A stretch of DNA of 64,000 nt from Bacteroidota bacterium (GTDB lineage: Bacteria > Bacteroidota > Bacteroidia > CAILMK01 > JAAYUY01): positions 6,946-70,945 of the forward strand of contig JADHTG010000009.1 of the NCBI GenBank assembly GCA_016776505.1, written 5' to 3'. The translations under genes were made by a program, and so were the position numbers. This document shows positions 30,223 to 62,423 of this stretch, one piece after another. Within the stretch, counting starts at the first letter, position 1; each line of letters begins with the position of its first letter. The notes beneath the pieces were generated by a model. It was not told where the DNA came from. It worked only from the letters and a program-made list of their open reading frames with translations, and made no database searches.

Positions 30223-30233
30223 GATTTAATTGT

Positions 30234-32336: not shown

Positions 32337-32337
32337 G

Positions 32338-32805: not shown

Positions 32806-32821
32806 GATGATGATTTTAAAT

Positions 32822-33688: not shown

Positions 33689-34115
33689 ATCCTTTCAAAA
33701 ACTTCCAAAGGAGTGTTCTCATTTGCAATAATTCCTCTATTGGCATTTTCAGAGAATGCAAAAGTTTTTGCGGAACTGCTTCTGCAGCTGTTCTTAGTTT
33801 TTTGCCATTATGAGTTAAAGCAATTTCTAATGTCCTTTCATCGGTAGATGATCTTTGTTTTGTCAGCAAGCCTTTTTCTTTCATTTTGCTTATTAATGGA
33901 CTAAGTGTATTCGAGTTCAGGAATAGTTTTTCGCCCAATTCTCCTATAGTGAGATGCCGGTTTTCCCACAAAACAAGCATGACAATATATTGAGGATATG
34001 TGAGCCCAATTTCTTTTAGATAGGGTTGGTACATTCGCGTTATCATATGTGAACTTGCATATAAAGGAAAGCAAAGCTGATCTTCAAGCAATAAGGACGA
34101 TTTTACTTCTTTCAT
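33675..34115 (-). CDS. MarR family transcriptional regulator
   Basis: Winged-helix MarR pattern (LTYPQYIVMLVLWENRHLTIGELGEKLFLNSNTLSPLISKMKEKGLL). Confidence 0.8.
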   Translation of the reverse strand: MKEVKSSLLLEDQLCFPLYASSHMITRMYQPYLKEIGLTYPQYIVMLVLWENRHLTIGELGEKLFLNSNTLSPLISKMKEKGLLTKQRSSTDERTLEIALTHNGKKLRTAAEAVPQKLLHSLKMPIEELLQMRTLLWKFLKGFEKR

Positions 34116-39472: not shown

Positions 39473-40726
39473 ATGGTCCTCAAATCCCGTTTTATATTGC
39501 TTCTCATTATCCCTTTGTTTTTGAACACCCTGGATTCGCATGCTCAATTAGCAGGCTGTACGGATTCAAGAGCAAACAATTACAATCCCATTGCCACGAT
39601 AAACGACGGATCCTGTCTCTATGACAAAACAATAGTTAATCCCAGGGTTGTTATTCCTGAACTGCCTTTGAATTTATTTGAAAACAGTGGAATGATCAGT
39701 TTCAACGGGCTGTTATGGTTCCATAATGACAGTGGAGGAGAAGCAGAATTATATGGCCTGGATTCCCTTACAAATGAAATCAAAGCGACAATCAGGCTTA
39801 CCAACGCCACAAATACTGACTGGGAGGATGTATGCCAGGATAGTTTGTTTGTATATGTAGGTGATTTTGGAAACAATACAGGTACACGATCAGACTTGAA
39901 GATTTACAGAATAGATAAATCAGTTTTTCCGGATACAGGAACAGTGAACGTTTATGCAAATAGCATTGCGTATTTCTATCCGGATCAGGTAGATTTCACA
40001 GAGAGAAATAATAAACACAATTTCGATTGTGAAGCTTTTTTCATTCATTCAGATCACATGTATTTATTCTCTAAAAACTGGGTAAATGAATGGACCAAGG
40101 TTTACAGAATACCGACACAACCTGGAACTTATGTGGCTGGTTTAGTGGATTCATTTAATGTAAAAGGCTTAATTACTTCAGCTGATTTTGATGAGGCCAG
40201 GCAGGAGCTTGCCTTATTGGGATATCAGAACTATGTACCCTTTTTCTGGTTGATGTTTGACTTCCATGGCAATGATTTTTTTTCGGGAAACAAAAGAAGG
40301 TTTGACTTCCCTTTTACTCAAATTGGTACACAGGCGGAAGCTTTGATCTTTCATCCAGACAATGGGATTTATATTTCATCGGAAAAAAGTACGCTTATCG
40401 CCAATAAATTAATGGAAATGCATACATGGCCATGGACCAAAACCTTACATACAGGATTTACAGAAGCTGACTCATCAGAATTTATTGTTTATCCCAATCC
40501 GAATCAGGGGAGTCTTCGCATGAGTCTTCCTGAGAATAATTCAGCAATCATGAATATTCAAATCATTGATTCATCCGGCCGAACTGTTTTTGAATTAAAG
40601 AGTGAACGCATAGTGGATGAAGAAGAAATCGAATTAGACACCCAAAATATTCCAGGAGGTAACTATTTTTTAATCATCACAACAGAATCTGAGATATACA
40701 GGAAAAGTATCCATTTAGTGGATTGA
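39473..40726 (+). CDS. Secreted hypothetical protein with T9SS C-terminal sorting domain
   Basis: Signal peptide, short N-terminal Cys-loop module and a C-terminal T9SS CTD (FIVYPNPNQGSLRMSL...GGNYFLIITTE). It starts 2 nt after the peptidase stop. Confidence 0.55.
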   Translation: MVLKSRFILLLIIPLFLNTLDSHAQLAGCTDSRANNYNPIATINDGSCLYDKTIVNPRVVIPELPLNLFENSGMISFNGLLWFHNDSGGEAELYGLDSLTNEIKATIRLTNATNTDWEDVCQDSLFVYVGDFGNNTGTRSDLKIYRIDKSVFPDTGTVNVYANSIAYFYPDQVDFTERNNKHNFDCEAFFIHSDHMYLFSKNWVNEWTKVYRIPTQPGTYVAGLVDSFNVKGLITSADFDEARQELALLGYQNYVPFFWLMFDFHGNDFFSGNKRRFDFPFTQIGTQAEALIFHPDNGIYISSEKSTLIANKLMEMHTWPWTKTLHTGFTEADSSEFIVYPNPNQGSLRMSLPENNSAIMNIQIIDSSGRTVFELKSERIVDEEEIELDTQNIPGGNYFLIITTESEIYRKSIHLVD

Positions 40727-41891: not shown

Positions 41892-41920
41892 CCAGGATGA
41901 ATTCATCCTGTAAGCCTGGT
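41891..41920. terminator. Perfect 18-bp palindrome caggatgaattcatcctg, nested in accagg...cctggt, at the gene end
   Basis: Inverted repeat read directly from the sequence immediately after the stop codon at 41889-41891. It could equally be a protein-binding dyad. Confidence 0.35.
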
Positions 41921-42176
41921 CTCAAATCAAAAGCGAAACTTTCACAAAAAGGCAGTGAAAAAGTAAAATAAAGGACTTCATATGTTCTTCTTTTCAAACC
42001 CAGGAATTAACTCCAAACGCCAGTCATCGCCTCCCTGAGTTTCTTTTTGTTTTGCAGATAGATAGGTAAACCTGCCTGTTCGGTTTAGAAATTCCTAATA
42101 TGTTGGTAACGCTTATAATTGCTTGTTTATCAGATAATATTAGTTTAATTTAGCAGTTTAATAAAAAAAATCAAAT

Positions 42177-45100
42177 TTGAAAAATCTATACCTGTTTTTT
42201 AGATTTCTTAAATGCTGTTCTTTCATCCTGGTTTTCAACATCTGTTGCCATTCTGTACATGCCCAGGTAACAGTATATACTGAAAACTTTGAGCACGGGA
42301 GTAATATGCCTTCTGGTTGGTCCCAGGAATATGTTTATGATACTTTAAACTGGATTTTTACCAGTGGAGGTCAAAGTGGTCACCCATCGGCTGCACATGG
42401 TGGCAGCTACAATGCATTATTGTATTATGGAGGGATATACAGAACAACCAAACTGATTTGCAAACCTCTTAACCTAACTCCATATTCTAATTTACAATTG
42501 AAGTTCTGGCATACACAGGAAGAATATTCAGGAGACCAGGATAAATTAAAAGTATTTTACAAGACTTCAGCAAGTGGTAGCTGGGTTCAATTAGCAAGCT
42601 ATACAACGAATGTTTCCTCCTGGACGCAACGTACTATTACCTTACCAAATCCAAGTTCCAACTATTACATTGCATTTGAAGGTGAAGCCAGATATGGATA
42701 TGGTGTATGTGTTGATGATGTACTGATCACGGGTACTGTTTCAAATGGTTTAGACATCAGTTGTGTCAGTATCTCATCTCCTTTAATTTGGGGAGTAGGT
42801 AATAATACTCTTAAGATCAGCTATAAAAATATGCGTTCAGACACTATTTTCAATGCTGATTTTGGCTATAAATTGGATACGAATACAGCGGTTATTGATA
42901 CGAATAAATCGACTGGAACTTTGCTGGCCAACCAGGAAAAGGATTATACTTTTCCCGCTTCATTGAGTATTAGTAAAGGAAACCATTATATCAAGGTATG
43001 GGCAAACAAACCCAATCGCACAAATCCGGACGATGTGCCTGCAAATGATACATTTACACTGAATTTTGGAACGGGTATCAAGGATACATTCTATATCGAT
43101 AAAAGTGGACAGGGTGATTACACCACTTTTGCCGCGGCAGTAGCTGATTTGAACAACGGGGTTACGGGTCCGGTTTGGTTTATCGTGAAACCAGGTACAT
43201 ATACGGAAAAGGTTGTGATAGGAGAAATTCCGGGTGCGGATTCAACCAATACCATCACATTTGATGGATTGTATAAAGACAGCACATTCCTGTCATATAC
43301 AGGGACTTCTGCAGCAAATAGAGCCACATTATCCTTTAAAGGGGCCGATTATGTGACCTTTAAAAATATGACCATCAAGAATGAGGGCAATACTTATGCA
43401 GTTGCAGTATTGTTAAGGAATAAATCAGACCACAATACATTTTTCAATTGCAACCTGAAGCTGAAAACGACTGTTACCAGCGGATATGCTCAGGTGATAT
43501 TAGCGTCGGCTAAAGAAAATAGTACTGGTGCCAATGGGGATAATTGCAACTATACATCATTTGAAAACTGTTTAATTGAAGGAGGGCAGTATGGTGCCCG
43601 CATGCATGGAACAAATACAGCTTCTATGGCTGTAAATAACAGTTTTGTTAATTGTAATTTTACTAATCAGTGGTATTTTGGATTGTATTTGTATTACCAA
43701 CAAGGATTTAACATCTCTTATTGCAAAGTGGCAAACTTCAGACATGCATCTGCCTATGGTCTAATTAACTATTATGGTGCAGGTTCTAATATAGATGGCA
43801 ATAGTATACAAGCGGGTATTCATGCTCTTTATTTGTATCGTGAAAACTACTATAAACAAAATAATTCTTCTTATGTAACAAACAACATGATATGCAATTT
43901 CAAGAATACAGTATATCAGAGAGGAATATATGCAGTTTCATATTGTTATAACTTAAACATACTTCACAACAGCATTCTTGTTAATGGCACGTCTACTTCT
44001 CCTACTTATGCTGCTATTTATATATATTACTATTGTAATAATTCGGTCATTAAAAACAATTTACTAGCTAGCTTGAATAAGACAAACATTCTTGCCATGC
44101 TTTATGCAGGAACAGTTTCTGTGGATTATAATGACTACTATTATGACACCAACTCAAATGTTAAATTCTATATTAATTACAGTTATGCCAACTTCAACAC
44201 CTTTAAATCCATTGCATCCTATATCAACTATCCACATGACCTGAATTCCTTTGATAATGTGAATCCCGGATTTGTTTCAAATACCAACCTGCATCTTGAT
44301 ACATTAAGTTCCATAAGCCTGATGGCCCCGGCAGCTGGCATTTCAAACGACTTTGATAATGAAAGCAGAAATTTGAATTTTGGAGTAAATTTAGGAGCTG
44401 ATGAAATCCCACATCCAAACCGTGACCTGGATATCATTAGTATTGATACACCTGCCGTGCTTAAGTCGGGCTCCAATATCGTTTCCATAACACTTCGAAA
44501 TATGGGTACCGATTCCATTGTACCACAAAAACTTTACCTGAATTATAGGCTAAATGGTGGAAATCCTGTAAATGATTCTTTGACGCTAAGCTCGAAATTA
44601 CCTCCTTTCGGCAGTATAAAATTTTCGTTTCAAACACCTGTAAATATTACAGGATCCGGAAGTTATGAATTCTGTGTTCAACTAAGCCCCGGGATATACA
44701 ATGATCCGGATAGCCTGGATGAGTTATGTGTCACCAAATGTCTGGGTAAAATAGATACCTTTATGATCGATCCCAGTGGTAATGGTGATTTTACTACCAT
44801 AATGGCAGCTGTCAATTCACTGCAAACATGTGGTATTTCAGGAGCAGTTACTTTTATTTTAAAAGCGGGAACATATGTTGAGCGGGTTGTAATCCCTGAA
44901 ATCCCGGGTGCAAATTCGGTCCGAACTGTTACCTTTCAAGGTGTTCATAAAGATAGTGTTGTACTTGTCCATGCAGGAACCTCAACAGCAAAATCTGTTA
45001 TTTTGCTAAATAGTGCAGATCATATAGTGATCAAAAATATGAGAGTATTAAATAATGGAAACAGTTATGCGAGCTGCATCCATTTTATGAATGGAGCTGA

Positions 45101-48100
45101 TTCTAATACTGTTGAGAACTGTGACCTGACAGTTAGTACAGCAACTTCTTCCTATAAAATTCCGGTAATAGCTTCTAATTCAGAGTTATATTATAATACA
45201 TATGGAAATACTGCCAATGGAAACCTGATAAAAAATAATAAGATTTCAGGTGGTTATCATGGTATATGTATGGTAGGAACTGATAAAAATAATCTTTGTT
45301 GGAATAACCGGATAATTGGAAATACAATTAAGGATCAATATTATATGGGGATTTATAATATTTATCAGGGTAATACTGAGATCATTGGGAATAGCATTAA
45401 GAATCTGGATTTGTATTATGCATATGGCATTTACAGGTATTATTGCACTAAAGCGAGGATAGAATCCAATGTGATACAGCCAGGACGGATTGGAATATAT
45501 CTTAATCGTGAGAATAACCTTTTCCCAGATAACAGTACACACATCATTAATAATATGATTAGTAATTTTAATGACGGCACCTATCAAGCTGGTATTTATA
45601 CTTATTATTACAGCACTAAACTGAAAATTTATCACAACAGTATTTATTTAGATGGAAATGTTTCCTCCATAACTTATGCCGGACTTTCCTTGTATTATTA
45701 TTGTGATTCGGCCATTGTCAAGAATAATCTGATTGCCAGTGATGGAAGTAACTACCTGATGACTTCTTATATATCAAGGGGTACAATTATCGATTACAAT
45801 AGTTACTATGCTCCTAATAACACATCCTATAAATTCTATAATTCAGCCTCTTTTACTAATTTAAGCGCATACAAAAATTCTACTGCATATCTGGTTTACC
45901 CACACAATGTAAACTCCTTCGAAAATATTAATCCGGGCTTTATTTCGCTTGCCAATCTTCATCTATCCTCTAATTCTGCAGGTATTGGAGGAGATACATT
46001 GGGCATATTATATGATATAGATGGGGATTATCGCTGCCAGGCCAGTCCCAGTCTGGGTGCTGATGAAGCAGGACCCGTATCTGACTTTAGCATTAATTCT
46101 GCAACACAATGTATGGATGGGCATATTTTTATATTGAATAATACTTCTCAGGGAGGCACTGCCACTCTATCCTATTTTTGGACCTTTGGTGATGGAGATA
46201 CATCTACTTTAAGAAATCCTGTTCATTCCTATGCATCTCCGGGGACTTATACAATTACACTGATAGTCTATCCAAGTTTTGGTTGTTCAGATACCACCTC
46301 TAAAACTGTTACCGTCAATCCTTCCCCTCAAATTGGTTTCACTGTGAATGATAGTACTCAATGTCTCCAGAATAACAATTTTAATTATCAGAATACAACT
46401 ACCATCAGTTCAGGCAGCTTAACTTATAATTGGAATTTTGGAGATGGTTATTCTGCCGGAGTTCAAAATCCTACACATTCATATGGATATAGTGACACTT
46501 TTGCAGTCAGGTTAATTGTGGGCAGCGATCTGGGCTGTGTGGATACGCTCATAAAAAATATGTATGTGTTTCCCATGCCAGATGCTGATTTTACTATTAA
46601 TAGCGGTGCTCAGTGTAAATTGAACAATAATTTTATTTTCACAAATACCACAAGCATTTCATCAGGTACACTGACTTTTTTCTGGGATTTTGGGGATGGA
46701 AATACATCCACTCAAATGAGTCCTGCACACTCTTATGCTGCAAACGGGAATTATGATGTAAAACTGACAGCAACTTCTGCCTTTGGTTGCATGGATTCAG
46801 CTTTAAAAAATACATTTGTTTATCCGACACCAACAGCTACTTTTACTGTTAATGATACGGACCAATGTTTGAACGGGAATCTATTCCAAATCACAAACTC
46901 ATCCTTTGTAAGTTCAGGATCACTGACTTATTATTGGACTTTTGGGGATGGAAATTCATCCAGCCAGTCAAATCCTTCTTATTCTTATTCTGCTACTGGA
47001 ACCTATCTCATAAAATTAATAGTATCCACAACAAATTCTTGTGTAGATTCCGCACAGCAGTATGTCATAGTTCATCCTTCCTTAATTGCTGATTTCAGCA
47101 TTAACAATGTAAATCAATGTTTAAAAGGCAATAATTATATATTCACCAATGCAACTACCACCACTAATGGTACGATGAGCTATTACTGGGATTTTGGTGA
47201 TGGATCCGTTTCCACTTCGACCAGTCCGACCCATGTTTACAGCATTTTTGGAGCATTAGATGTAAAATTAGTTGCCAGTTCAACAAACAGCTGTTCAGAT
47301 ACGATATCTAAACCTGTCCAAATTTACTCCATGCCTCTGAACGTGAAGGATACATCACTGTCAAACCGGCTTTCAGACAGTTTACTTGCTTGGTATCCTT
47401 TTATTGGTAATGTAAATGATCACAGTGGTTTGTCAAATAACGGAACGGTATATGGAGCAAGTTTAAGCAATGATCAATGCAGTCGAAGTGATAGTGCATA
47501 TTATTTTGACGGCAATGATTATCTCAGGGTGCCTCATGCAGTCTTTTTAATACCCCAGAATAGCTACGCTGCATCAGCCTGGATCTATCCAACTCAATCA
47601 GGTGGTACGCAATATATCCTTTACAAATATCAAAGCAATTTATACAAAGGCTATTCTATTGCCTTATATAACAATAAAATAGCTGCTGATTTTGGAGGAA
47701 GTTTGAATCCTGTTTATTCAACCCAAAGTGTTAATTTAAATGAATGGAACCATATTGTCGTTAGTTACGATGGCTGGAATTATAAAATGTACCTGAATAA
47801 TCAGGTGGTTGGATCGGGCATTGCAGCCAATAATTTTCAATCAATCACGCCTTTATACATAGGCTCCAGGGGAACTGCCAACTATTTTAAAGGCTATCTT
47901 GACGAAGTCAGGATTTACGATAAGTCGCTGGACAATGTTGAAATAAATGCACTTTATCATGAAATACCCTACGTTCAGCTAAAAGATACTTTTGTTTGTT
48001 CTGGTAACTCCACTTCCATTTACATCCATAATTCAGGAGTTGGAATTGGCTACCAGTTAAAAGACTATGGAACTGGGAGTTCAATAGGCTCAGTAGTCTA

Positions 48101-51100
48101 TGGAAATGGATGCAGGATCAGTTTGAGCACAGGAACCATCAGCAGCCAAAAGCAAATTCAAATTGTTGCCACTGATTCAAGCACTTCCTGCCAGCAGATA
48201 TTTGATACACTAATTACAATAATTCTGGCTCCCGTACCAACAGCTGCGTTTACTGTATCTCCCACTTCATCCTGTCTTTCCGGTAATCATTTTACACTTA
48301 CAAATTCATCATCCGTGAGTTTTGGTTCCTTACAATTTAAGTGGGATTTTGGAGATTTAAATACTTCAACACTGACCAGCCCGACACACCAATATACCTA
48401 TGCGGATACTTTTACTATTAAACTGACCACTACAACCACATACGGTTGCAGCGATTCCTTAGAGAAATCAGTAAGGGTATTCCCCCAACCCAATGCAGAT
48501 TTCACTATAGCAGATAGTATTCAATGTTTGGGTAATAATGCATTCGCATTTGTTAATAATTCAACTATCTTGAATGATACATTGAGTTACCTTTGGGATT
48601 TTGGAGATGGAAATAAATCTACAACTAAGAATCCGGTTCATTCCTATTCTTATGCAGACACCTTCCAGGTGAAATTAATTGTCAGTTCAGGAAATGGATG
48701 TACAGACTCCATGATTAAAACGACATACCTGCATGTCAATCCAAATCCAACCGCCGGGTTTAGCATCAATGACAGTACTCAATGTTTGAACGAAAATAAC
48801 ATATCCCTGACAAACTCATCCAGCATCAGTGCAGGTACTATGAATTTTAGCTGGAGATTGGGTGATGGGAACACCTCCACTGCAACAAATCCAAGTTATC
48901 AATACAGTGCTTATGATACCTTTGATATAACGCTACTGGTCGTTTCAGATAAAGGCTGTACTGATTCAGTCATGCACCAGGCTTATATTTATCCCAATCC
49001 GAACAGTTCGTTTTCAATAAATGATACGGTTCAGTGCTTTACAGGAAATGTGTTCAGTTTCACAAATCTCACAAGCATCCCTTATGGATCTTTTACCTCC
49101 TGGTGGTCTTTTGGAGACGGATCTTTTTCGACAACAAGCAATCCAACCCATTCATTTACTCAGCCTGATACATTTACAGTTCAATTGTTATCCACTTCAA
49201 ATTATGGATGTTTGGATTCTGTTCAGTCTAATGCTATTGTAGAACCCAGTCCTGTTGCTGGTTTTACTGTTAACGATACCACACAATGCCTGGATGGCAA
49301 TAGTTTTTCATTTACTGATCTGTCAGTAGGTGGTTCTGGAACCATATATTACTATTGGACTTTTGGAGATGGATCAGGCTCAACAGCTCAAAACCCGGTT
49401 CATTCTTACTCCACTGCAGGCACTTACCAGGTTAAGTTATTAATCCATTATGGTGCTTTCTGCAAGGATTCCATGCAAAAACAAATTGTGGTGTATCCCA
49501 CGCCGATTGCCGATTTTAGTGTAAATGACTCAACTCAATGTCTGACCAACAACAGCCTCTCGTTCACAAATTTGTCCAGCATCACATCTGGTTCCATGAG
49601 TTATTTCTGGACATTTGGTGATGGCAGTTCAAGTACAGCCACGAATCCCACGCATAGCTATAATACAGACGGCACTTACCAGGTTCAATTACTTGTTATT
49701 TCATCGGAGGGCTGCAGTGATTCAATATCTTCAAGTATTCAAATTTGGCCTGTGCCAACAGCATCCTTTAGCATCAATAACACTTCCCAGTGTTTTGGCG
49801 GAAACAGCTTTGGCTTTAACAATACTTCCTCCATAAAATCAGGATCATTGACATACCTTTGGACCTTCGGGGATGGAAATTCATCTTCTTCAGCATCACC
49901 GTCCTATTCTTATTCAAGTCCGGGTAGCTATAGTGTGAAATTGGTGGTCAGTTCTGCTTATTCCTGCCAGGATTCTGTAACGCAAAATGTGCTGGTAAGT
50001 CCTATGCCAATTGCAGATTTTACAATCAGTAATGACACTCAATGTTTAGATGGAAATACATTCTATTTTTACGATTCTTCAATCATTTCATCTGGCAGCA
50101 TCAGTTACAATTGGAATTTCGGGGACGGATCCACTTCCAATCTTCAGAATCCAGGTCATTCCTATCTCAATCCGGGTAGTTATGCTGTTAAACTTCTGAT
50201 CAGTTCGGATAAGGGATGTCTTGACTCCCTCAGCAAAACGGCACTTGTGAATCCGAATCCTGTAGTAAGTTTTAGCGTCAACGATACAGACCAGTGTTTG
50301 AATATCAATCATTTTGTAATTAGCAATAACAGTTCAATAAGTTCAGGAACTTTAAGCTATTCCTGGGATTTTGGGGATGGATCCAGCTCTGATTCAAGCA
50401 ATCCGGTCAAGCAGTATAGCACAGCGAATACTTTCACGATCAAGTTAATAGTAAATAGTAATAATTATTGTACAGACTCCATGTCCCAAAAGGTTATTGT
50501 ATTCCCAAATCCTCAATCAGATTTTAGTGTAAACAGCGATAGTCAATGCTTTGCCTCAAACCAGTTTGTCTTTACGAATTCATCTTCCATAGCAGCTGGT
50601 AGTTTAGTTTATTTGTGGAGTTTTGGCGACAGTCAAAATGATACTGCTCAGCATCCTGTACATTCCTATGCTTCAAACGGAAGCTACCAGGTTCAATTAA
50701 TCAGTAGCTCCCCGAATGGATGTGTCGATACAGCTACAAAATCCATGACTGTTTTAGCAAGCCCCGAGGCTTCATTTACAGTGAATGATACCGACCAATG
50801 TTTGACGAACAATAGTTTTGTACTTTCCAATACATCAACCATCAACTCGGGGAATTTGTATTATTTATGGGATTTTGGTGATAATTCGACTTCAGCCAGC
50901 AAAGATACAAATCATACCTATGCGACAGACGGAATTTACCAGCTGAAGCTTTTAGTAAGTTCAGGCTTCAATTGCAGCGATTCTGCTTATCAGGCATTAT
51001 ATGTTTATCCAATCCCGGTGGTTGATTTCAGCATTAATGATACAAATCAATGCCTGACAGAAAATCTGTTTGCCCTTACAAACACCTCCTCGATTTCAAC

Positions 51101-54032
51101 AGGAAACATCAGTCATTTCTGGAGTTTTGGAGATTCTGACACATCCACATCTGAGCATCCAGATCACAGCTATTCTTCTGCAGATACATTTGCCATCAAA
51201 CTGATCGTTAGCTCAACAAAATCTTGCAAAGACAGCATTGAAAAGAAAGTGGTAGTGCTCCCTTCACCATTTGCTGATTTTACAATAAACGACAGTGATC
51301 AGTGTTACAATGGTCATCAATATATTTTCATGAATCAATCACAAATCAGTAGTGGAAGCCTGGTTTATTTATGGACTTTTGGAGATGGAGATTCCAGCTT
51401 ATCGGCTTCTGATACCCATGTGTACCAGAGTGCTGGAGTGTACCAGGTAAGTTTATTTGTCAACAGCAACTCATTATGCGCAGATACCCTGGTAAAATCA
51501 ATTAGCCTTATGCTTTCTCCTAAAGCGGGCTTCATGGTAAATGACAGCGGACAATGTGATTTGGGAAATTCATTTGTATTTACCAACTCATCCACTGGTT
51601 TAGGTGCTAATCCCAGTTATTTGTGGTACTTTGGAGATGGTGACACATCCAGTTCACCTGATCCCACTCATAGCTATGCCACTACAGATTCTTTTAAAGT
51701 CAAACTATTGGTCAGCACACAGGATGCCTGTGAAGACAGTCTGATGCGTACGATGTTTGTATATCCAACTCCATCAGTTGATTTTGCAATCAATTTAGCG
51801 GTTCAGTGCTATGGTAGCAATGATTTCAAATTTACCAACCTGACTCCCATCATTGCACTGACCAGCTGGATCTGGGATTTCGGGGACGGAGATACCAGCC
51901 AATCCCAGCACATATCACATACGTATAAGCTGGTTGATACATTTGCAGTATCGTTGATGGCAACAACGGATCATTTGTGCAGTGACACTCTCTTTAAACA
52001 AGTCATTACTTTACCAGGTCCTAAATCCTTATTTACTGTAAACGATACGGTTCAATGTTTAAATTCAAATACATACAATTTTGTAAACACTAGTCAAAGT
52101 GTAGGATTTACACCACATTATTATTGGTATTTTGGAGATGGAGATACTTCAACAATGACTCATGTTTCTCATGTTTACCAGGATACCGGAAGCTATTTAG
52201 TTCAATTGATAGCAGTGCCAGATACAGGTTGTGCAGACACTTCATCCCTCATGGTACATGTTCAGCCTCTGCCGGATGTTAATTTTACTGTTAATAGTGC
52301 AACTCAGTGTTTGAATAGTAAGCCGTTTGTGTTTACAAATCAATCGAATTCTTATGGATACCAGAATACAGCCATTTGGAATTTTGGTGATGGTGTATAT
52401 GACAGTGCAATCAGCCCATCTCATATCTATGCTGATACAGGATCCTACACAGTCTATTTGGTGATTGAAGCCGGTGTGGGTTGTAAAGATTCAAATTTTA
52501 TGATTGTTCAGGTATTTGACAATCCGGTAGCAGATTTCGCCATAAATGATACTTCCCAATGTTTCAGTATGAATTCATTTGTTTTTACAAATAATTCCAG
52601 TGGTTTGGGTAGTCTTAAGTACAGCTGGGAATTTGGCGATGGAAATACCAGTTCATCTGCTGGTCCTGTTTCGAATGCTTACTTAAAGGAAGGAATATAC
52701 ACCGTCAGCTTAGTTGCAGAAACAGGTATAGGATGTCAGGATACAATTAGTAAACTGGTGTATGTTCATCCTCAACCCCTAGCCGGTTTTAGTATAAATG
52801 ATACCGTCCAATGCTCATATGGGAATCATTTTATCACAAGCAATCATACGACCATTAGTTCCGGTAATTTAACTTATTTATGGAGTTTTGGTGATGGCAG
52901 AACTTCCAGCTCAAAAGAACCACGTTACAATTACCCCATGTTTAATACCTATGTGGTCAAGATGGTCGCAACATCCGATGAAGGATGCAGTGACTCCAGC
53001 TATCGCACAGTTTATGTTTTAGAAGATCCAAACGCTGATTTCACTTTCAATAAGCAGGAGCAATGCCTGTTAAATAATCATTTTGTATTGCTGAATAATT
53101 CAAGTATCAGCAGTGGTTCACTAAGTTTTTTATGGGACTTTGGTGGCGGGGATACTTCCAGTTATGTTAACACAAGTCATATTTATTTAACTTCAGGGAT
53201 ATTCGATGTGATCTTAATCGTTACTTCCGATAGTGGATGTGTCGATTCTGTGATTAAACAATGTACTGTCCATCCGAATCCGGATGCTGATTTTTATATT
53301 GACAAAAATCCACAGTGCCAGGTTGGGAACTTATTTAAATTTACAAGTACGTCCTCGATTACAAGTGGAACACTTGACAACAACTGGTATTTTGGAGATG
53401 GAGATAGCAGCATGGGTTTAGATTCATCAACACACAGTTATAAAAGCACGGATTCTTATGATGTGATGTTGGTTGCCTTATCAGATCATCAATGTGGAGA
53501 TACTTTGATAAAGACAGTTAGCCTGACTGAGAGTCCCAAAATAGACCTTGGTAAAGATATATTCACCGTGCCCAATGTTTCTATAAATATTGATGCAGGT
53601 CCTGGTTATTCAACCTATTTATGGCACGATAATTCAACTGGTCAGTTTTATACAGTAAATACAAATAATTTAGGCATTGGAGATCATTTGATATTTGTCA
53701 CAGTTACAGATTCGAAAGGATGTTGGAATTCTGATTCAATATGGATTTTTATTTGGCCTTCCGGCATAGATGAATTCAGCGATTTAATCAGCTATAAATT
53801 ATTTCCCAATCCTGCAAGGGGTTTCTTTCATATTGAATTTAATGAATTATATGATGCTGAAGTTGAGGTAGTGGTGGAAGATATACAAGGAAGAGAAGTT
53901 TTCAATTCTAAATTCAACCCATTGCGTGACAATAGCAGCTATCGTGTTGATCTTGATCAGGCAAAAGGAATCTACCTTGTCAAAATGGTAATTGGAAATA
54001 AAGTGAAAGTGCACAAAGTGATGATGTACTAG
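42177..54032 (+). CDS. Giant (3951 aa) T9SS-sorted cell-surface protein: N-terminal MAM/choice-of-anchor-J-like domain, 2x (CARDB-like + right-handed beta-helix), 26 PKD domains, LamG lectin domain and C-terminal T9SS sorting domain
   Basis: Signal peptide; 26 W-x-FGDG-x-S...HxY PKD cores; a LamG block (YYFDGNDYLRVP...LDEVRIYDKSL); beta-helix NxxNCxF rungs; and a C-terminal CTD (LFPNPARGFFHIEF...GIYLVKMVIGN). Only a TTG at 42177 is available as a start upstream of the signal peptide. Confidence 0.85.
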   Translation: MKNLYLFFRFLKCCSFILVFNICCHSVHAQVTVYTENFEHGSNMPSGWSQEYVYDTLNWIFTSGGQSGHPSAAHGGSYNALLYYGGIYRTTKLICKPLNLTPYSNLQLKFWHTQEEYSGDQDKLKVFYKTSASGSWVQLASYTTNVSSWTQRTITLPNPSSNYYIAFEGEARYGYGVCVDDVLITGTVSNGLDISCVSISSPLIWGVGNNTLKISYKNMRSDTIFNADFGYKLDTNTAVIDTNKSTGTLLANQEKDYTFPASLSISKGNHYIKVWANKPNRTNPDDVPANDTFTLNFGTGIKDTFYIDKSGQGDYTTFAAAVADLNNGVTGPVWFIVKPGTYTEKVVIGEIPGADSTNTITFDGLYKDSTFLSYTGTSAANRATLSFKGADYVTFKNMTIKNEGNTYAVAVLLRNKSDHNTFFNCNLKLKTTVTSGYAQVILASAKENSTGANGDNCNYTSFENCLIEGGQYGARMHGTNTASMAVNNSFVNCNFTNQWYFGLYLYYQQGFNISYCKVANFRHASAYGLINYYGAGSNIDGNSIQAGIHALYLYRENYYKQNNSSYVTNNMICNFKNTVYQRGIYAVSYCYNLNILHNSILVNGTSTSPTYAAIYIYYYCNNSVIKNNLLASLNKTNILAMLYAGTVSVDYNDYYYDTNSNVKFYINYSYANFNTFKSIASYINYPHDLNSFDNVNPGFVSNTNLHLDTLSSISLMAPAAGISNDFDNESRNLNFGVNLGADEIPHPNRDLDIISIDTPAVLKSGSNIVSITLRNMGTDSIVPQKLYLNYRLNGGNPVNDSLTLSSKLPPFGSIKFSFQTPVNITGSGSYEFCVQLSPGIYNDPDSLDELCVTKCLGKIDTFMIDPSGNGDFTTIMAAVNSLQTCGISGAVTFILKAGTYVERVVIPEIPGANSVRTVTFQGVHKDSVVLVHAGTSTAKSVILLNSADHIVIKNMRVLNNGNSYASCIHFMNGADSNTVENCDLTVSTATSSYKIPVIASNSELYYNTYGNTANGNLIKNNKISGGYHGICMVGTDKNNLCWNNRIIGNTIKDQYYMGIYNIYQGNTEIIGNSIKNLDLYYAYGIYRYYCTKARIESNVIQPGRIGIYLNRENNLFPDNSTHIINNMISNFNDGTYQAGIYTYYYSTKLKIYHNSIYLDGNVSSITYAGLSLYYYCDSAIVKNNLIASDGSNYLMTSYISRGTIIDYNSYYAPNNTSYKFYNSASFTNLSAYKNSTAYLVYPHNVNSFENINPGFISLANLHLSSNSAGIGGDTLGILYDIDGDYRCQASPSLGADEAGPVSDFSINSATQCMDGHIFILNNTSQGGTATLSYFWTFGDGDTSTLRNPVHSYASPGTYTITLIVYPSFGCSDTTSKTVTVNPSPQIGFTVNDSTQCLQNNNFNYQNTTTISSGSLTYNWNFGDGYSAGVQNPTHSYGYSDTFAVRLIVGSDLGCVDTLIKNMYVFPMPDADFTINSGAQCKLNNNFIFTNTTSISSGTLTFFWDFGDGNTSTQMSPAHSYAANGNYDVKLTATSAFGCMDSALKNTFVYPTPTATFTVNDTDQCLNGNLFQITNSSFVSSGSLTYYWTFGDGNSSSQSNPSYSYSATGTYLIKLIVSTTNSCVDSAQQYVIVHPSLIADFSINNVNQCLKGNNYIFTNATTTTNGTMSYYWDFGDGSVSTSTSPTHVYSIFGALDVKLVASSTNSCSDTISKPVQIYSMPLNVKDTSLSNRLSDSLLAWYPFIGNVNDHSGLSNNGTVYGASLSNDQCSRSDSAYYFDGNDYLRVPHAVFLIPQNSYAASAWIYPTQSGGTQYILYKYQSNLYKGYSIALYNNKIAADFGGSLNPVYSTQSVNLNEWNHIVVSYDGWNYKMYLNNQVVGSGIAANNFQSITPLYIGSRGTANYFKGYLDEVRIYDKSLDNVEINALYHEIPYVQLKDTFVCSGNSTSIYIHNSGVGIGYQLKDYGTGSSIGSVVYGNGCRISLSTGTISSQKQIQIVATDSSTSCQQIFDTLITIILAPVPTAAFTVSPTSSCLSGNHFTLTNSSSVSFGSLQFKWDFGDLNTSTLTSPTHQYTYADTFTIKLTTTTTYGCSDSLEKSVRVFPQPNADFTIADSIQCLGNNAFAFVNNSTILNDTLSYLWDFGDGNKSTTKNPVHSYSYADTFQVKLIVSSGNGCTDSMIKTTYLHVNPNPTAGFSINDSTQCLNENNISLTNSSSISAGTMNFSWRLGDGNTSTATNPSYQYSAYDTFDITLLVVSDKGCTDSVMHQAYIYPNPNSSFSINDTVQCFTGNVFSFTNLTSIPYGSFTSWWSFGDGSFSTTSNPTHSFTQPDTFTVQLLSTSNYGCLDSVQSNAIVEPSPVAGFTVNDTTQCLDGNSFSFTDLSVGGSGTIYYYWTFGDGSGSTAQNPVHSYSTAGTYQVKLLIHYGAFCKDSMQKQIVVYPTPIADFSVNDSTQCLTNNSLSFTNLSSITSGSMSYFWTFGDGSSSTATNPTHSYNTDGTYQVQLLVISSEGCSDSISSSIQIWPVPTASFSINNTSQCFGGNSFGFNNTSSIKSGSLTYLWTFGDGNSSSSASPSYSYSSPGSYSVKLVVSSAYSCQDSVTQNVLVSPMPIADFTISNDTQCLDGNTFYFYDSSIISSGSISYNWNFGDGSTSNLQNPGHSYLNPGSYAVKLLISSDKGCLDSLSKTALVNPNPVVSFSVNDTDQCLNINHFVISNNSSISSGTLSYSWDFGDGSSSDSSNPVKQYSTANTFTIKLIVNSNNYCTDSMSQKVIVFPNPQSDFSVNSDSQCFASNQFVFTNSSSIAAGSLVYLWSFGDSQNDTAQHPVHSYASNGSYQVQLISSSPNGCVDTATKSMTVLASPEASFTVNDTDQCLTNNSFVLSNTSTINSGNLYYLWDFGDNSTSASKDTNHTYATDGIYQLKLLVSSGFNCSDSAYQALYVYPIPVVDFSINDTNQCLTENLFALTNTSSISTGNISHFWSFGDSDTSTSEHPDHSYSSADTFAIKLIVSSTKSCKDSIEKKVVVLPSPFADFTINDSDQCYNGHQYIFMNQSQISSGSLVYLWTFGDGDSSLSASDTHVYQSAGVYQVSLFVNSNSLCADTLVKSISLMLSPKAGFMVNDSGQCDLGNSFVFTNSSTGLGANPSYLWYFGDGDTSSSPDPTHSYATTDSFKVKLLVSTQDACEDSLMRTMFVYPTPSVDFAINLAVQCYGSNDFKFTNLTPIIALTSWIWDFGDGDTSQSQHISHTYKLVDTFAVSLMATTDHLCSDTLFKQVITLPGPKSLFTVNDTVQCLNSNTYNFVNTSQSVGFTPHYYWYFGDGDTSTMTHVSHVYQDTGSYLVQLIAVPDTGCADTSSLMVHVQPLPDVNFTVNSATQCLNSKPFVFTNQSNSYGYQNTAIWNFGDGVYDSAISPSHIYADTGSYTVYLVIEAGVGCKDSNFMIVQVFDNPVADFAINDTSQCFSMNSFVFTNNSSGLGSLKYSWEFGDGNTSSSAGPVSNAYLKEGIYTVSLVAETGIGCQDTISKLVYVHPQPLAGFSINDTVQCSYGNHFITSNHTTISSGNLTYLWSFGDGRTSSSKEPRYNYPMFNTYVVKMVATSDEGCSDSSYRTVYVLEDPNADFTFNKQEQCLLNNHFVLLNNSSISSGSLSFLWDFGGGDTSSYVNTSHIYLTSGIFDVILIVTSDSGCVDSVIKQCTVHPNPDADFYIDKNPQCQVGNLFKFTSTSSITSGTLDNNWYFGDGDSSMGLDSSTHSYKSTDSYDVMLVALSDHQCGDTLIKTVSLTESPKIDLGKDIFTVPNVSINIDAGPGYSTYLWHDNSTGQFYTVNTNNLGIGDHLIFVTVTDSKGCWNSDSIWIFIWPSGIDEFSDLISYKLFPNPARGFFHIEFNELYDAEVEVVVEDIQGREVFNSKFNPLRDNSSYRVDLDQAKGIYLVKMVIGNKVKVHKVMMY

Positions 54033-54043
54033 GGGAACCTCTG

Positions 54044-54061
54044 CCGAAGGGATGCCTTCGG
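54044..54061. terminator. Hairpin ccgaagg-gatg-ccttcgg 12 nt after the stop of the giant gene
   Basis: 7-bp GC-rich stem with a 4-nt loop, read directly from the sequence. Confidence 0.4.
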
Positions 54062-54232
54062 AACAAATTCCAAACTCCAAATTCCAAACTCCAAATTCCC
54101 AGCTCAAATTCCCAGCATTTCCGACTTTGCTTCGCTGAAGCTCTGGAAAAGCGATGCAGGCAATCAAATTTCAAGAAGGTCTAAATGACTCCTTGGGAGA
54201 ATTTTGAGTTTTGGGTTTTGAGTTTTGGATTG
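54062..54232. repeat. Inverted arrays of tandem heptamers ((C/T)TCCAAA x4-5 ... TTTTG(A/G)G x4) flanking a roughly 75-nt core, between convergent genes
   Basis: Seen directly: ccaaactccaaattccaaactccaaattccc at 54071-54100, and ttttgagttttgggttttgagttttgg at 54201-54228, which is its imperfect reverse complement. Confidence 0.5.
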
Positions 54233-54238
54233 TCCAGT

Positions 54239-55336
54239 CTATTTCCCTCCTTTAAACTTAGTATTCACGTCCACAATATAGTCCCAATTGGGAAATGCAT
54301 TCTCGAATTCTTCAGGGAATTTTTGTTTCAATTCCTCTGCATCTTCAATAAAAAACTCTTTCACTCCTTCAGTTATTGTATAGGTGAAAGTGCCTATGGG
54401 TCCAATTTCAGACCCTGGTTCAAGAATTGAGTTCGCCAAAGCACTGGGCCATCCATGTTTAGGGTATATAAAGATGAATTCTTTGGTTTCATCAAATCTT
54501 GGTTCCCTCTTTTTGGCTTGTTTACGCTCTTCAGCCAGTCTTCTTTCTTCCGCTTCACGAGCAGCTCGTTCCTGCCTGAATTTCTCATTTTCTTCTTTGA
54601 TTCGCTTTTCTTCAGCCTCCCGTTCTAATCGTTTCTGTTCAATCATAGCCAGTCGATCTGATTCTTGTTTAGCTGTTGCCATCTGTATACTGTCGATTCG
54701 AGCTTTTTCAGCTAATAATCTATCCCGTTCTGCTTTTTCAGATGCCATTTTTTCTGCCAGTTTAAGTGCTTTTAAGCGTTCTTCTTCCTGTCTTTTTGCT
54801 TCCTTTCTTAACTCTTCAGCAATCCGGCATCTTAATTTTCTTTCTTCCTCATATTTGGCTTCCATCAGGTAGGTGAATTCATAATCATACTGGAATTCTT
54901 TATCGCCTCTATTAAACTTCACCCTTCCAATGGGATCAGGGGTTAATTCCACTTTAGCAGGATTTTCATCGCAATTCTTTTTTAGAATTATTTCTAAAAA
55001 AAGGGTGTGCGATTTATGAAGCTGTTTACGGGGAACATCAGTTTCCACTTCAATGGATTTCGTATAAAATTCAGGATGGCTGACAGCAATGAGATAAGTC
55101 GTATTTAAATTAAGCTTAACAATGCACAGTCCTTTTTTCGTAGTATCTGCCTTGCTTTCATTACTAAAAATATCAGTATAGCGGACAACTGCATCATTGA
55201 ATTTAGGATTTTCCCAACTGTCCACTGTGATGTTTGCTTTGATATAATTGGTGTCCTGTGCATACACATTAGTAATGGGGATACATAAACAGAGCAAGCA
55301 GAAAAAGCCATTTAATTTGCTAAAAATATGTTCCAA
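54239..55336 (-). CDS. Secreted protein with long charged coiled-coil segment (E/R/K/A-rich)
   Basis: Signal peptide, a beta-rich N-domain, roughly 120 aa of heptad-like EERK/LAEK repeats, and a C-terminal globular domain. Confidence 0.5.
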   Translation of the reverse strand: MEHIFSKLNGFFCLLCLCIPITNVYAQDTNYIKANITVDSWENPKFNDAVVRYTDIFSNESKADTTKKGLCIVKLNLNTTYLIAVSHPEFYTKSIEVETDVPRKQLHKSHTLFLEIILKKNCDENPAKVELTPDPIGRVKFNRGDKEFQYDYEFTYLMEAKYEEERKLRCRIAEELRKEAKRQEEERLKALKLAEKMASEKAERDRLLAEKARIDSIQMATAKQESDRLAMIEQKRLEREAEEKRIKEENEKFRQERAAREAEERRLAEERKQAKKREPRFDETKEFIFIYPKHGWPSALANSILEPGSEIGPIGTFTYTITEGVKEFFIEDAEELKQKFPEEFENAFPNWDYIVDVNTKFKGGK

Positions 55337-59204: not shown

Positions 59205-62200
59205 ATGAAAAACTTAAGGTTTGCAATTTTATTTATATTGTGTCAATTTTTGTTTTTTTCAGCAGGAGCTCAGTTACCCGCAGTCAATGTAACTACGAAC
59301 ATTAATCCTTCCAACGGATATACATTTATTGCAACTTTTTGGACGGGTACAGCAGGTAAATTTTATCTTTTAATTCTTGACAAACAGGGAAGAATAATAT
59401 ATGCCAAATCATTTCCCACCGCTATAAATGGCAGATTTTTGGATTTTAAGCCCCAACCCAATGGCAAATATTCCTTTTTTGCCAATAAACAGAACCGATA
59501 TTATATGATGGATCAATTCTTTAATATAATTGATACAGTCGTAGCTAAAAACGGATATTCAACGAATAATCATGAGCTTATTATCTCGAATGATAATCAA
59601 TATTTTATAATAGCGAATGAAGTAAGAACAATTGATATGTCACAGGTGGTTTCCGGTGGTAGTACTAATGCCCAGGTAACAGGTAACATCATCCAGGGGA
59701 TAGATTCCAATGACAATTTAATTTTTGAGTGGAAAGTCTTGGATCATATTTCTATTACCGATCATGTAGGGGATCTCACTGCTCCTGTTTTTGATTTTGC
59801 ACATACCAACAGCCTTTTTCTCGATACTGACACGACTATTCTTATGTGCAACCCTTCATTAAATGAAATTACCAAAATCAACCTTAATAACGGAAATATA
59901 ATTTGGAGGTTGGGAAGACTGGCCAAAAGCAATCAATTTACATTTACAAATGACACTTTAGGTTTCATTTTTCAGCATACTGTAAACAGATTACCTAACG
60001 GAAATATCACACTGTTTGATAATGGACTTGGTCGGTATTCCCGTGCTATTGAATATGAAATTGATGAGGTCAATAAAACAGCAAATCTTGTATTTCAATA
60101 CAGAAACACTCCGGATATTCTTAGTTGGGCAATGGGAAGTGCAATCAGGTTAGCAAATGGCAATACCTTCATTGGTTGGGGATCTGTTACTAAAATGACC
60201 GAAGTTGATACCGCAGGGAATAAGGTCTTTGAAGCTTCATTTCCGTCTTGTACTTACAGGGCACTGAAATACAATATTCCTGATCCAATATCACAATTAA
60301 TATCGGGCCCTTCCGAAATTTGTGAAGGTCAGACAGCAACTTATACTGCTTATCCTTGTACTAACTGTACATATTCCTGGAGTATTACAAATGGTTCCAT
60401 TATAAGTGGGCAAGGTACTAATATACTTACTGTTAAGTGGCCAACTGACGGGCAAGGAATTGTCAGGTTAACCAAAACAAACTCCCTTAACCACAAGGAT
60501 TATTTATTAATTTATGTTACTGTGTTACCAGGTCCCACAGTAAAAATGGGTATTGTGAAAATTTGTAAAGGAGCCAGATTCATAGATTATACTACCAATT
60601 CAGTAAACCGCTTCTGGGATTTTGATGATGGTGACACATCATATTTATCTGATATCAAACACATCTATAGCTCTCCCGGAACATACCAGGTAAAACTGAA
60701 AGTAATGGATAACAATGGCTGTACCGATTCAATCATACAAACCATAATAATCCCAGATACAACAATAGCTGATTTCAGTATCGATTCTATTGTATGTGTT
60801 AATGAGAAGATTACAATTATAAATAATTCGACTGATGCAGACAGTTACTTCTGGGATTTGGGAGATTCTATGACTTCTAATCTTAAAAATCCCTTGACAT
60901 TTTTATACACTACAGCCGGCACGTATGATGTCAAATTATCTGCTTCAGGCTCAGGGTGTAAAGACTCTCTGACAAAAACAGTGGTAGTTAATCCAAACCC
61001 AATTGCCCACTTCAGTTTTAGTGAAATTTGTAATGGTGCCCGATTAATAGATTCAACTATCAATTCTCTATTCCGTATATGGGATTTTGGAGATGGCGAC
61101 ACATCTGTATTAACAGACATTGATCATATTTATAGTTCTCCCGGAACTTATCAAGTCAAACTGAAAGTATTCAATAACCAGGATTGTGCCGATTCAAGCA
61201 TGCAAACCATAATAATCCCCGATGCACCTAAAGCTGAATTCAGTATTGATACGAGTATATGTAGTTCTGAAATAACCACGATAGTCAATAATTCAACAGC
61301 TGCAAATGCTTACTTCTGGTATTTAAAAGATTCTATGATTTCTAATTTGAAAAATCCATTGGCATTCTCGATCTCAGCAGTTGGTTCTTACGATATTAAA
61401 TTAATTGTAACAGGCTCAAATTGTATTGACTCTCTTACCAAAACAGTTGTTGTCAATCCAAATCCAAAAGTCCACTTAAGTTTTAGTGAAATTTGTAATG
61501 GTGCCAGATTTATAGATTCAACCATCAATTCAGTATTCCGTATATGGGATTTTGGTGATGGCGACACATCTGTATTAACAGAAGTTGATCATATGTATAG
61601 CTCTCCCGGAATTTATCAAGTCAAACTGAAAGTATTCAATATCCAGGGTTGTGCCGATTCAACTATAGAGTCCGTTATAATCCATAAAGCTCCAAAAGCT
61701 GATTTCAAAATTGATTCTATTGTTTGTGCTTCAGAGACCATATCAATTATCAATAATTCAACTGATGCCAGTAATTATTTTTGGGAATTGGGGGATTCAC
61801 GTACTTCCAATTTGATGACTCCCGAAGCATTCTCCTATAACACAACCGGCTCGTATCAAATTAAATTGGTGGCTTCTACCTCAGTTTGTTCAGACTCCCT
61901 AATTCAAACAGTATTTGTTATGCCGAATCCGGTGGTAAAAATCGGTTCAAGCACACTCACAGATTCTACTATACAGTTTTACGATTCTTCCAGTATTTCA
62001 GCCGGCAGTATTGTTTCCTGGGATTGGAATTTCGGAGATGGCAAAACATCAACTATCAGGCATCCAGTACATATATATTCATCACCTGATACCTATACTG
62101 TTGAGTTATGTGTTACTTCAAATGAAGGATGTGAAAATTGTGATATTAAATCAATCGTTGTAACGGCAACCGGAATTGCTATGTCAGAAATTGATAATTT

Positions 62201-62423
62201 AATAAGTATTTATCCCAATCCCAATAAAGGTGTTTTTATAATTAAATCATCAACAAAACTCGATTTAATTGTGATTACCAATGCATTCGGACAGGAAATT
62301 ATGGTGATTAAACCTAAAACTGATACTGAATTAATTGATCTGTCTAATAAACCAAAAGGGGTCTATATAGTTAAACTAAGACTTGAAAATCATGATCAGA
62401 TAAGCAGAATTATAAAGAATTAA
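59205..62423 (+). CDS. Secreted T9SS-sorted protein: N-terminal arylsulfotransferase-like beta-propeller region, 7 PKD domains, C-terminal T9SS sorting domain
   Basis: Signal peptide; the N-terminal roughly 350 aa has propeller-like motifs (NGNITLFDNG); W-x-FGDG PKD cores; and a C-terminal CTD (LISIYPNPNKGVFII...GVYIVKL). Confidence 0.8.
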   Translation: MKNLRFAILFILCQFLFFSAGAQLPAVNVTTNINPSNGYTFIATFWTGTAGKFYLLILDKQGRIIYAKSFPTAINGRFLDFKPQPNGKYSFFANKQNRYYMMDQFFNIIDTVVAKNGYSTNNHELIISNDNQYFIIANEVRTIDMSQVVSGGSTNAQVTGNIIQGIDSNDNLIFEWKVLDHISITDHVGDLTAPVFDFAHTNSLFLDTDTTILMCNPSLNEITKINLNNGNIIWRLGRLAKSNQFTFTNDTLGFIFQHTVNRLPNGNITLFDNGLGRYSRAIEYEIDEVNKTANLVFQYRNTPDILSWAMGSAIRLANGNTFIGWGSVTKMTEVDTAGNKVFEASFPSCTYRALKYNIPDPISQLISGPSEICEGQTATYTAYPCTNCTYSWSITNGSIISGQGTNILTVKWPTDGQGIVRLTKTNSLNHKDYLLIYVTVLPGPTVKMGIVKICKGARFIDYTTNSVNRFWDFDDGDTSYLSDIKHIYSSPGTYQVKLKVMDNNGCTDSIIQTIIIPDTTIADFSIDSIVCVNEKITIINNSTDADSYFWDLGDSMTSNLKNPLTFLYTTAGTYDVKLSASGSGCKDSLTKTVVVNPNPIAHFSFSEICNGARLIDSTINSLFRIWDFGDGDTSVLTDIDHIYSSPGTYQVKLKVFNNQDCADSSMQTIIIPDAPKAEFSIDTSICSSEITTIVNNSTAANAYFWYLKDSMISNLKNPLAFSISAVGSYDIKLIVTGSNCIDSLTKTVVVNPNPKVHLSFSEICNGARFIDSTINSVFRIWDFGDGDTSVLTEVDHMYSSPGIYQVKLKVFNIQGCADSTIESVIIHKAPKADFKIDSIVCASETISIINNSTDASNYFWELGDSRTSNLMTPEAFSYNTTGSYQIKLVASTSVCSDSLIQTVFVMPNPVVKIGSSTLTDSTIQFYDSSSISAGSIVSWDWNFGDGKTSTIRHPVHIYSSPDTYTVELCVTSNEGCENCDIKSIVVTATGIAMSEIDNLISIYPNPNKGVFIIKSSTKLDLIVITNAFGQEIMVIKPKTDTELIDLSNKPKGVYIVKLRLENHDQISRIIKN
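60529..61940 (+). repeat. Three tandem roughly 470-bp units (each encoding two PKD domains) with very high nucleotide identity inside the 1072-aa gene
   Basis: Units start near 60529, 61003 and 61471. Units 2 and 3 are nearly identical at the DNA level (ttttagtgaaatttgtaatggtgcc...gattcaac...atatgggattttgg... recurs almost exactly). Confidence 0.75.

Follow-up and report, generated by a model that had tools for sequence, protein, structure and literature searches.

Within contig JADHTG010000009.1 of a Bacteroidota bacterium (assembly GCA_016776505.1), a stretch of 64,000 nucleotides (nt; positions 6,946 to 70,945 of the forward strand), referred to below as the window and numbered from its own first letter, contains a single gene of 11.9 kb at 42177..54032 (+), which raises the question of what so large and repetitive a protein does, how it would leave the cell and whether such a reading frame can be trusted at all. 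The gene most likely encodes a ~420-kDa fibrillar surface protein of this uncultured bacterium, a probable type IX secretion system (T9SS) cargo. Judging from the signals and domains read in the sequence, its architecture and its secretion route are very probably those set out below, and a role as a non-enzymatic, cell-anchored fibrillar adhesin or binding fibre is favoured with moderate confidence.

One reading frame and its start codon

Direct translation and the listing of open reading frames (ORFs) yielded a complete gene of 3951 codons plus a stop at these coordinates, beginning with TTG and free of internal stops, in agreement with the single uninterrupted ORF described in an earlier note on this DNA. 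Two in-frame stops lie upstream (42159 and 42162), and the four codons between them and TTG 42177 (AAA AAA TCA AAT) are not start codons. No ATG, GTG or TTG was present in frame between codon 1 and the ATG of codon 44 (42306), which left no other canonical start to consider in that interval, and an upstream ATG at 42100 was rejected because it is out of frame and hits a stop. Upstream of the signal peptide, TTG 42177 is therefore the sole canonical start, and an ATG does not appear before codon 44, both as the same note had stated. The identical protein is already present at NCBI with the same TTG start (MBL6962792.1, 'PKD domain-containing protein', 3951 amino acids, aa).

Translation from this TTG would provide a Sec signal peptide (42177..42263, +; aa 1-29), proposed from sequence inspection, homolog N-termini and the Q-rule, that reads (M)KNLYLFFRFLKCCSFILVFNICCHSVHA and is followed by Gln30. 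Inspection revealed the basic residues K2, R9 and K12, a hydrophobic core (SFILVFNI) and a VHA end directly before the Gln, with QV following KNLYLFFRFLKCCSFILVFNICCHSVHA, and the predicted mature N-terminus (aa 30-43) would begin with Gln30, as pyroglutamate, followed by VTVYTENFEHGSN. The signal peptides of homologs likewise end in AQ; a Gln after the signal peptidase I (SPase I) cleavage site is the Q-rule of Bacteroidetes (PMC5837995, PMC10653852). All T9SS effectors require a Sec signal (PMC10202324), and for the present protein the N-terminal Sec (SPase I) signal that type A cargo carries was recognised by inspection only.

This signal peptide is encoded only if translation begins at TTG 42177, where the gene calls of NCBI PGAP and Logan begin; those of ENA begin at ATG 42306 and give 3908 aa with the signal peptide lost. 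The ENA truncation is probably due to a Shine-Dalgarno (SD)-like GGGAG that precedes the internal ATG, located 7-11 nt upstream of it (window 42291-42308). The match to choice-of-anchor J/MAM families opens at aa 34-37, before Met44, and a start at ATG 44 is disfavoured because it would cut off the signal peptide together with the first residues of that domain. The start region is unchanged in four other assemblies, and directly upstream of the TTG lies the A-rich stretch AATAAAAAAAATCAAAT; Bacteroidota prefer an A-rich initiation context in place of SD sequences. Initiation at TTG 42177 appears well supported, although not proven, and the locus offers a clean case of a secreted protein truncated by Prodigal-type callers, in which an internal ATG with an SD-like motif is preferred over what would be the true TTG.

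The risks of collapsed or expanded PKD repeats and of a frameshift, which the earlier note had also raised, were assessed on the repeats themselves and on other copies of the locus. No exact internal repeat is longer than 22 nt, which is below normal assembler k-mers, TRF found no tandem array inside the gene, and the direct-repeat families in it have 60-86% identity in stretches of 59 nt or less. The locus was found in at least 16 metagenome contigs (ENA, Logan), and four of them that were compared are 99.86-99.98% identical, gapless and colinear. In the cluster at 90% identity, which has 11 members, all nine full-length proteins have 3908 or 3951 aa, by start choice only and without indels, and they differ at five amino acid positions in total; a Logan copy of the gene (L086) differs by 5 nt, all of them synonymous. 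Because the PKD copies have diverged, the repeats are short and the independent assemblies are gapless, collapse, expansion or a frameshift is very unlikely, and neither mis-assembled repeats nor a frameshift were indicated. It follows that old, diverged PKD arrays of this kind can be safely assembled from short reads.

An artefact in any of its forms, be it repeats lost or multiplied in assembly, a pseudogene or a truncated cytoplasmic product of 3908 aa made from ATG 42306, is exceedingly improbable. The last of these forms would agree with the choice of the ENA caller and with the SD-like GGGAG before that ATG, but nine or more other assemblies have the same gene length and vary at no more than those five positions, the substitutions of the Logan copy are silent, no exact repeat exceeds 22 nt, and a start at codon 44 would drop both the beginning of the choice-of-anchor-J/MAM match and the Sec signal that a T9SS cargo needs (PMC10202324).

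Domain order and sorting signal

Whole-protein and segment-wise Pfam and NCBIfam scans with curated cut-offs, together with the profile and structure comparisons given below, placed from the N-terminus a choice-of-anchor-J/MAM domain, two modules made each of a CARDB-fold domain and a beta-helix, five PKD domains, a LamG domain, 21 further PKD domains, an Ig-like domain and, last, a C-terminal sorting domain (CTD) of type A. Taken jointly with the secretion route, this order is held with high confidence.

The T9SS type A CTD occupies 53799..54029 (+; aa 3875-3951) and contains the motifs KLFPNPA, GIYLVKM and KVKVHKV. Over aa 3875-3949, it was matched above the curated cut-offs by both families that define such cargo, Por_Secre_tail (PF18962; 32.8 bits vs. 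a cut-off of 27) and TIGR04183 (33.3 bits when the whole protein was scanned, 42 bits with its C-terminal 165 aa alone, vs. a cut-off of 23), and the sorting domain that had been proposed is thus of type A.

More than half of the protein is taken up by PKD arrays (2185 of 3951 residues), with domains 1-5 at 46077..47336 (+; aa 1301-1720, with an 84-aa period) and domains 6-26 at 48240..53534 (+; aa 2022-3786). The Pfam family PKD_4 (PF18911) matched 26 stretches with 930 bits in all, and a count by regular expression found 26 W-x-F-G-D-G motifs spaced by 83-86 residues, of which five precede and 21 follow the LamG domain; the two counts agree with each other and with the 5 + 21 arrangement claimed before. 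When the units were aligned, the columns F, C, W, G, C and D were invariant, whereas the copies as a whole have a mean amino acid identity of 41% (57% at most) and a codon-aligned DNA identity of 60% or less. The two invariant Cys in every unit suggest one disulfide per PKD domain.

The tripeptide D-[ST]-[AILVMT] is the general O-glycosylation sequon of Bacteroidota. It was counted 49 times in the protein compared with 18.9 ± 4.1 in residue shuffles, and in 23 of the 26 PKD units it stands at the same position, immediately following the second of the two invariant Cys (C-x-D-[ST]-h). The conservation of this motif could be purely structural, or it could denote a heavily glycosylated stalk. As a separate observation, the five positions that vary among the full-length cluster members (aa 2106, 2133, 2647, 3146 and 3192; window approx. 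48492-51752) are all in PKD units after the LamG domain (roughly PKD 7-19), and no variation was seen in the head, LamG domain or CTD of the members compared.

The N-terminal jelly-roll domain lies at 42276..42731 (+; aa 34-185). When the first 190 residues were scanned alone, the choice-of-anchor J model NF038128 matched over positions 2-162 of its 162 with 48 bits (cut-off 30) and MAM (PF00629) with 29.9 bits (cut-off 26.4), although the latter fell to 23.8 bits, below its cut-off, in the whole-protein scan; the resemblance to both families that had been noted before was borne out in this way. The LamG or concanavalin-A-like lectin domain was likewise recovered, at 47508..47945 (+; aa 1778-1923), where Laminin_G_3 scored 81-88 bits against a cut-off of 27.6.

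Two segments of about 90 aa each were absent from the earlier description. The first (47967..48239, +; aa 1931-2021) is a Ser/Thr-rich stretch of ~91 aa with three Cys, to which no Pfam or NCBIfam family was matched at E ≤ 0.01 and for which no relatives were present among 270 fetched proteins; it may be an Ig-like linker domain. The second (53535..53798, +; aa 3787-3874) is a divergent Ig/PKD-like domain directly before the sorting domain, which, as found with jackhmmer, forms tandem repeats in relatives such as P0173 and is weakly similar, in register, to the PKD units of the protein itself (E 0.003-0.02).

From these elements a route to the surface can be proposed. Translated from TTG 42177, the chain would be led through Sec by its 29-residue signal peptide, be cut before Gln30 and fold in the periplasm, probably with one disulfide in each PKD domain; the T9SS would then recognise the type A CTD, a PorU-type sortase would remove it, and the new C-terminus would be linked to the cell surface or the protein released. 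Since the anchor is C-terminal, the PKD/Ig-like domains (26 + 1) would act as a stalk that keeps the N-terminal head off the cell, a stalk which, if extended, would be of the order of 100 nm, a rough value based on about 3.5-4 nm per Ig-like domain. The head would be formed by the choice-of-anchor-J/MAM domain and the two CARDB + beta-helix rods, with the LamG domain five PKD units further in. Export in two steps, by Sec and then by the T9SS, with PorU processing, has been described (PMC10202324), PKD_4 has been treated as a stalk domain, and the plan of head, stalk and anchor defines fibrillar adhesins (PMC9210967).

Head modules as binding rods or enzymes

In module 1, a CARDB-fold beta-sandwich (42732..43076, +; aa 186-300) was recognised by a profile match, an AlphaFold2 model and Foldseek, and is followed by a right-handed parallel beta-helix (43077..44411, +; aa 301-745) with an N-cap GTYxE and a C-cap D-x-D-G-x-x-R ... 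G-A-D-E. In module 2, the CARDB-fold domain (44412..44756, +; aa 746-860) was placed by its similarity to module 1, and the beta-helix (44757..46076, +; aa 861-1300) by a NosD match of 36 bits and by Pfam Beta_helix. Compared with each other, the two modules (aa 186-741 vs. aa 742-1300) share 38% identity across 545 aligned residues (E 2e-101), and both helices are rich in Tyr (9.4%), with YY and YGIY ladders.

The proposal of two consecutive CARDB + beta-helix copies stood as regards the duplication and the fold but not as regards the Pfam label, given that the CARDB family (PF07705) did not match aa 186-305 or aa 742-865 alone at E ≤ 1. A profile built on 21 module sequences did match the solved CARDB structures 2l0d (E 2e-5), 2kl6 and 3idu. 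An AlphaFold2 model of module 1, calculated on the same alignment of 21 sequences (pLDDT 91.7, pTM 0.90), consists of a CARDB fold and a generic right-handed beta-helix, and with Foldseek its N-terminal beta-sandwich resembled 3idu, annotated as 'CARDB domain of PF1109', and 2kl6 (target TM 0.66-0.72).

In a neighbour-joining tree of modules, which has long branches and no support values, module 1 grouped with module 1 of the homolog P0001 and module 2 with module 2 of P0001, and the module appeared duplicated independently in several other proteins. As each module pairs with its counterpart in P0001, the duplication is old, in line with the ancient internal duplication suggested earlier; tandem duplication of the CARDB + beta-helix unit is recurrent.

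The ~555-aa module turned out to be very widespread. A profile search of 1.84 billion representative proteins, clustered at 50% identity, returned 38,032 matches at E ≤ 1e-3 and 19,150 at E ≤ 1e-10; at E ≤ 1e-30 there were still 9,166 clusters. Proteins with the module reach 7,814 aa and up to about 16-20 matched stretches, and the best 150 contain 711 near-full copies, typically 3-5 and at most 11 per protein; in homologs of the head the module stands in tandem one to three times. The plan seen in the relatives scanned is that of one or several modules, Ig-like or PKD repeats and a CTD, with no enzyme domains; of two that were scanned, one combines modules with Ig_7 and PKD_4 and the other modules with Por_Secre_tail. 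Over the head, the closest relative is 37% identical (search of 5.8 billion proteins; best non-self match among 8000 scored candidates, in which the protein's own cluster was not listed). No dedicated Pfam or NCBIfam model for the CARDB + beta-helix module was matched, and no published work on it was found in the literature searched.

With relatives of 5,000-7,800 aa, a module that is standard among them and an NCBI entry with the same TTG, the gene is less exceptional in size, domain count and start codon than it had first seemed. Secreted fibre or adhesin proteins of this class are very common, and the present one is ordinary among them and, as a single gene already deposited and auto-annotated, of little weight; a mildly new lead is the very large, unnamed family of its modules and their role as binding rod or enzyme.

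The 711 copies also served to locate conserved positions in the module. At least 80% conserved are, in the CARDB part, D193, N218, P279-N280, D285 and N290-D291, and, in the helix, the N-cap G..GTYxE, an Asn ladder and the C-cap S..P..LH...D-x-D-G-x-x-R....G-A-D-E. Gly is conserved along with the Asn ladder and the caps. In the helix body (hidden Markov model columns 178-500), no conserved acidic or basic residue was found save for one position that is basic in 70% of the copies.

These data bear on the possibility that the beta-helix modules are catalytic and form part of a polysaccharide lyase, hydrolase, esterase or epimerase that is tethered to the surface or secreted, with the PKD and LamG domains as carbohydrate-binding parts or spacers. 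A partial Pectinesterase match does exist (aa 309-428), but it covers profile positions 5-125 of 298, the first 40%, and ends before the catalytic region with its Q-D-T-L / D-F-I-F-G motifs; a pectin methylesterase (PME; CE8, PF01095) was rejected on account of this partial profile, of the absence of any PME chain matched by the family profile at E ≤ 1 and of the lack of a conserved Asp or Arg in the helix body. The module is only 9-18% identical to right-handed beta-helix carbohydrate-active enzymes (CAZymes) and binders of known structure (AlgE4 A-module 2pyg, NosD 7o0y, PL6 lyases, RbmB 9ozd, PME 1xg2 and the adhesin PfbA 3zpp) and, compared with them, has no conserved catalytic residues. 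In addition, typically 3-5 near-full copies in one protein, at most 11, or up to 16-20 matched stretches, would be unusual for catalytic domains. A catalytic head is accordingly regarded as unlikely: the conservation pattern points to a non-catalytic rod of variable surface more than to a CAZyme, although particular copies may be catalytic.

Since no catalytic residues are conserved over the module copies, binding, as an adhesin or otherwise, best fits the data; the most likely targets are polysaccharide or particle surfaces, which the head modules would hold on to and not cleave. The same conservation would also suit a purely structural surface fibre or coat, a glycocalyx or spacer without a specific ligand in which the beta-helix modules are rigid rods. 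Only structural positions of the module are conserved, relatives have many modules in tandem, and the stalk carries the possible O-glycosylation sequon in most of its PKD units; however, choice-of-anchor-J/MAM and LamG are typical binding modules and the variable helix surfaces fit diversified binding equally well, so a fibre with no ligand is considered quite improbable.

Several points weigh against an anchored adhesin all the same. The Pfam scan recognised no adhesive domain in the protein, and adhesion has been demonstrated for none of its head domains (choice-of-anchor J/MAM, CARDB + beta-helix, LamG). Cargo of type A may be attached to anionic lipopolysaccharide or be released, and the sequence does not tell which (PMC10202324). 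None of SprA/Sov, PorV, PorU or GldKLMN was seen among the neighbours scanned in the 64-kb window. Finally, the Bacteroidota-type promoter motif TAnnTTTG, present 71 times in the window (both strands), does not occur in the 285-bp gap upstream of the gene (41892-42176), where a scan for sigma-70-type promoters likewise gave matches near chance; the gene may be co-transcribed with four upstream genes of the same strand or have a degenerate promoter.

For the module family as a whole, we tentatively suggest that the ~555-aa unit defines a very large, unnamed family of Bacteroidota T9SS surface fibres, in which it would serve as a rod without catalytic activity whose variable binding faces are rich in Tyr. 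If so, the module would add a new class to the known adhesive or structural building blocks and would not be a CAZyme, and defining it would better annotate thousands of large Bacteroidota surface proteins with a part in the attachment to particles or polysaccharides.

Genomic setting and comparison with known systems

The base composition is uniform (33-40% GC). Upstream on the same strand are a small protein with a type A CTD and two unknown ORFs, and downstream on the opposite strand an unknown ORF, a glycerol-3-phosphate dehydrogenase, a lipase-like protein and GDPD; the neighbours also include an S9 prolyl oligopeptidase, and none of these genes offers a functional clue for the giant gene. 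Searched against 185,579 species genomes, the S9 peptidase has a best match of only 59% identity, with matches in metagenome-assembled genomes of Bacteroidales and other Bacteroidota, and therefore a poorly sampled Bacteroidota lineage is indicated. Besides the giant protein, two type A CTD proteins are encoded in the window, the small upstream one of 417 aa, in which the CTD is the sole recognised domain (39473..40726, +), and one of 1072 aa with an arylsulfotransferase (ASST)-like beta-propeller, a PKD-like domain and six PKD_4 domains (59205..62423, +); their presence implies a T9SS in this genome.

In the gap between the gene and the convergent ORF 54239..55336 (-), at 54033-54238, a 7/14-nt tandem repeat CAAATTC/CAAACTC is found at 54064-54112, with an inverted partner at about 54196-54234; the motif does not occur elsewhere in the window. 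Contigs of two other assemblies (L085, L086) stop 112-139 nt past the stop codon, shortly after the tandem repeat and before the inverted partner. As a terminator, the inverted repeat was rejected, the z score of its RNA fold (-1.8) being not significant. A carotenoid biosynthesis cluster was also noted at 28726-34115 (-), comprising an amine-oxidase-type desaturase, Caroten_synth, a lycopene cyclase, a phytoene/squalene synthase and a MarR regulator, as read from precomputed Pfam labels on an identical locus (L001).

Among the known systems compared are the giant surface proteins SprB and RemA of Flavobacterium johnsoniae, likewise repetitive and T9SS-dependent (PMC10202324). A gliding-motility adhesin of this type, moved by the T9SS/gliding motor, would account for the size and repetitive nature of the cargo, and RemA, too, has a type A CTD (PMC10202324). 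SprB, in contrast, has a type B CTD, a cognate SprF and SprB repeats, none of which was found for the present protein: an SprB-type adhesin was rejected as TIGR04131/PF13585, PF13573 and PorP/SprF were not matched in the Pfam and NCBIfam scans of the protein or its neighbours. No gliding genes were seen in the window either, and a function in gliding is very improbable.

A likeness also exists to the fibrillar adhesins of Monzon and Bateman (PMC9210967), with which the protein shares its length, an Ig-like stalk (here 26 PKD domains and one Ig-like domain), a terminal anchor signal and non-repetitive distal domains. Those adhesins belong to Firmicutes and Actinobacteria and have sortase anchors, whereas the present protein has a T9SS CTD and no recognised adhesive Pfam domain, and its stalk repeats are only about 41% identical and not near-identical.

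The protein can also be compared with the T9SS type A CTD cargo of Bacteroidota (TIGR04183/PF18962, multi-PKD), with which it has in common the Sec signal followed by Gln, the type A CTD and the long Ig-like/PKD arrays. Nothing categorical sets it apart from this cargo, although its size is towards the upper limit of the range and no characterised member has its combination of head domains (choice-of-anchor J, two CARDB/beta-helix modules and LamG). Within Bacteroidota, further counterparts are the multi-module CARDB + beta-helix giants (such as P0001, P0037, P0043, P0132, P0152 and P0164), which have the same ~555-aa module with its caps and Asn ladder and, after it, Ig-like or PKD repeats before a T9SS CTD. 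Compared with these giants, in which 3-5 modules are typical and up to 11 occur, the present protein has two modules and an unusually long PKD stalk.

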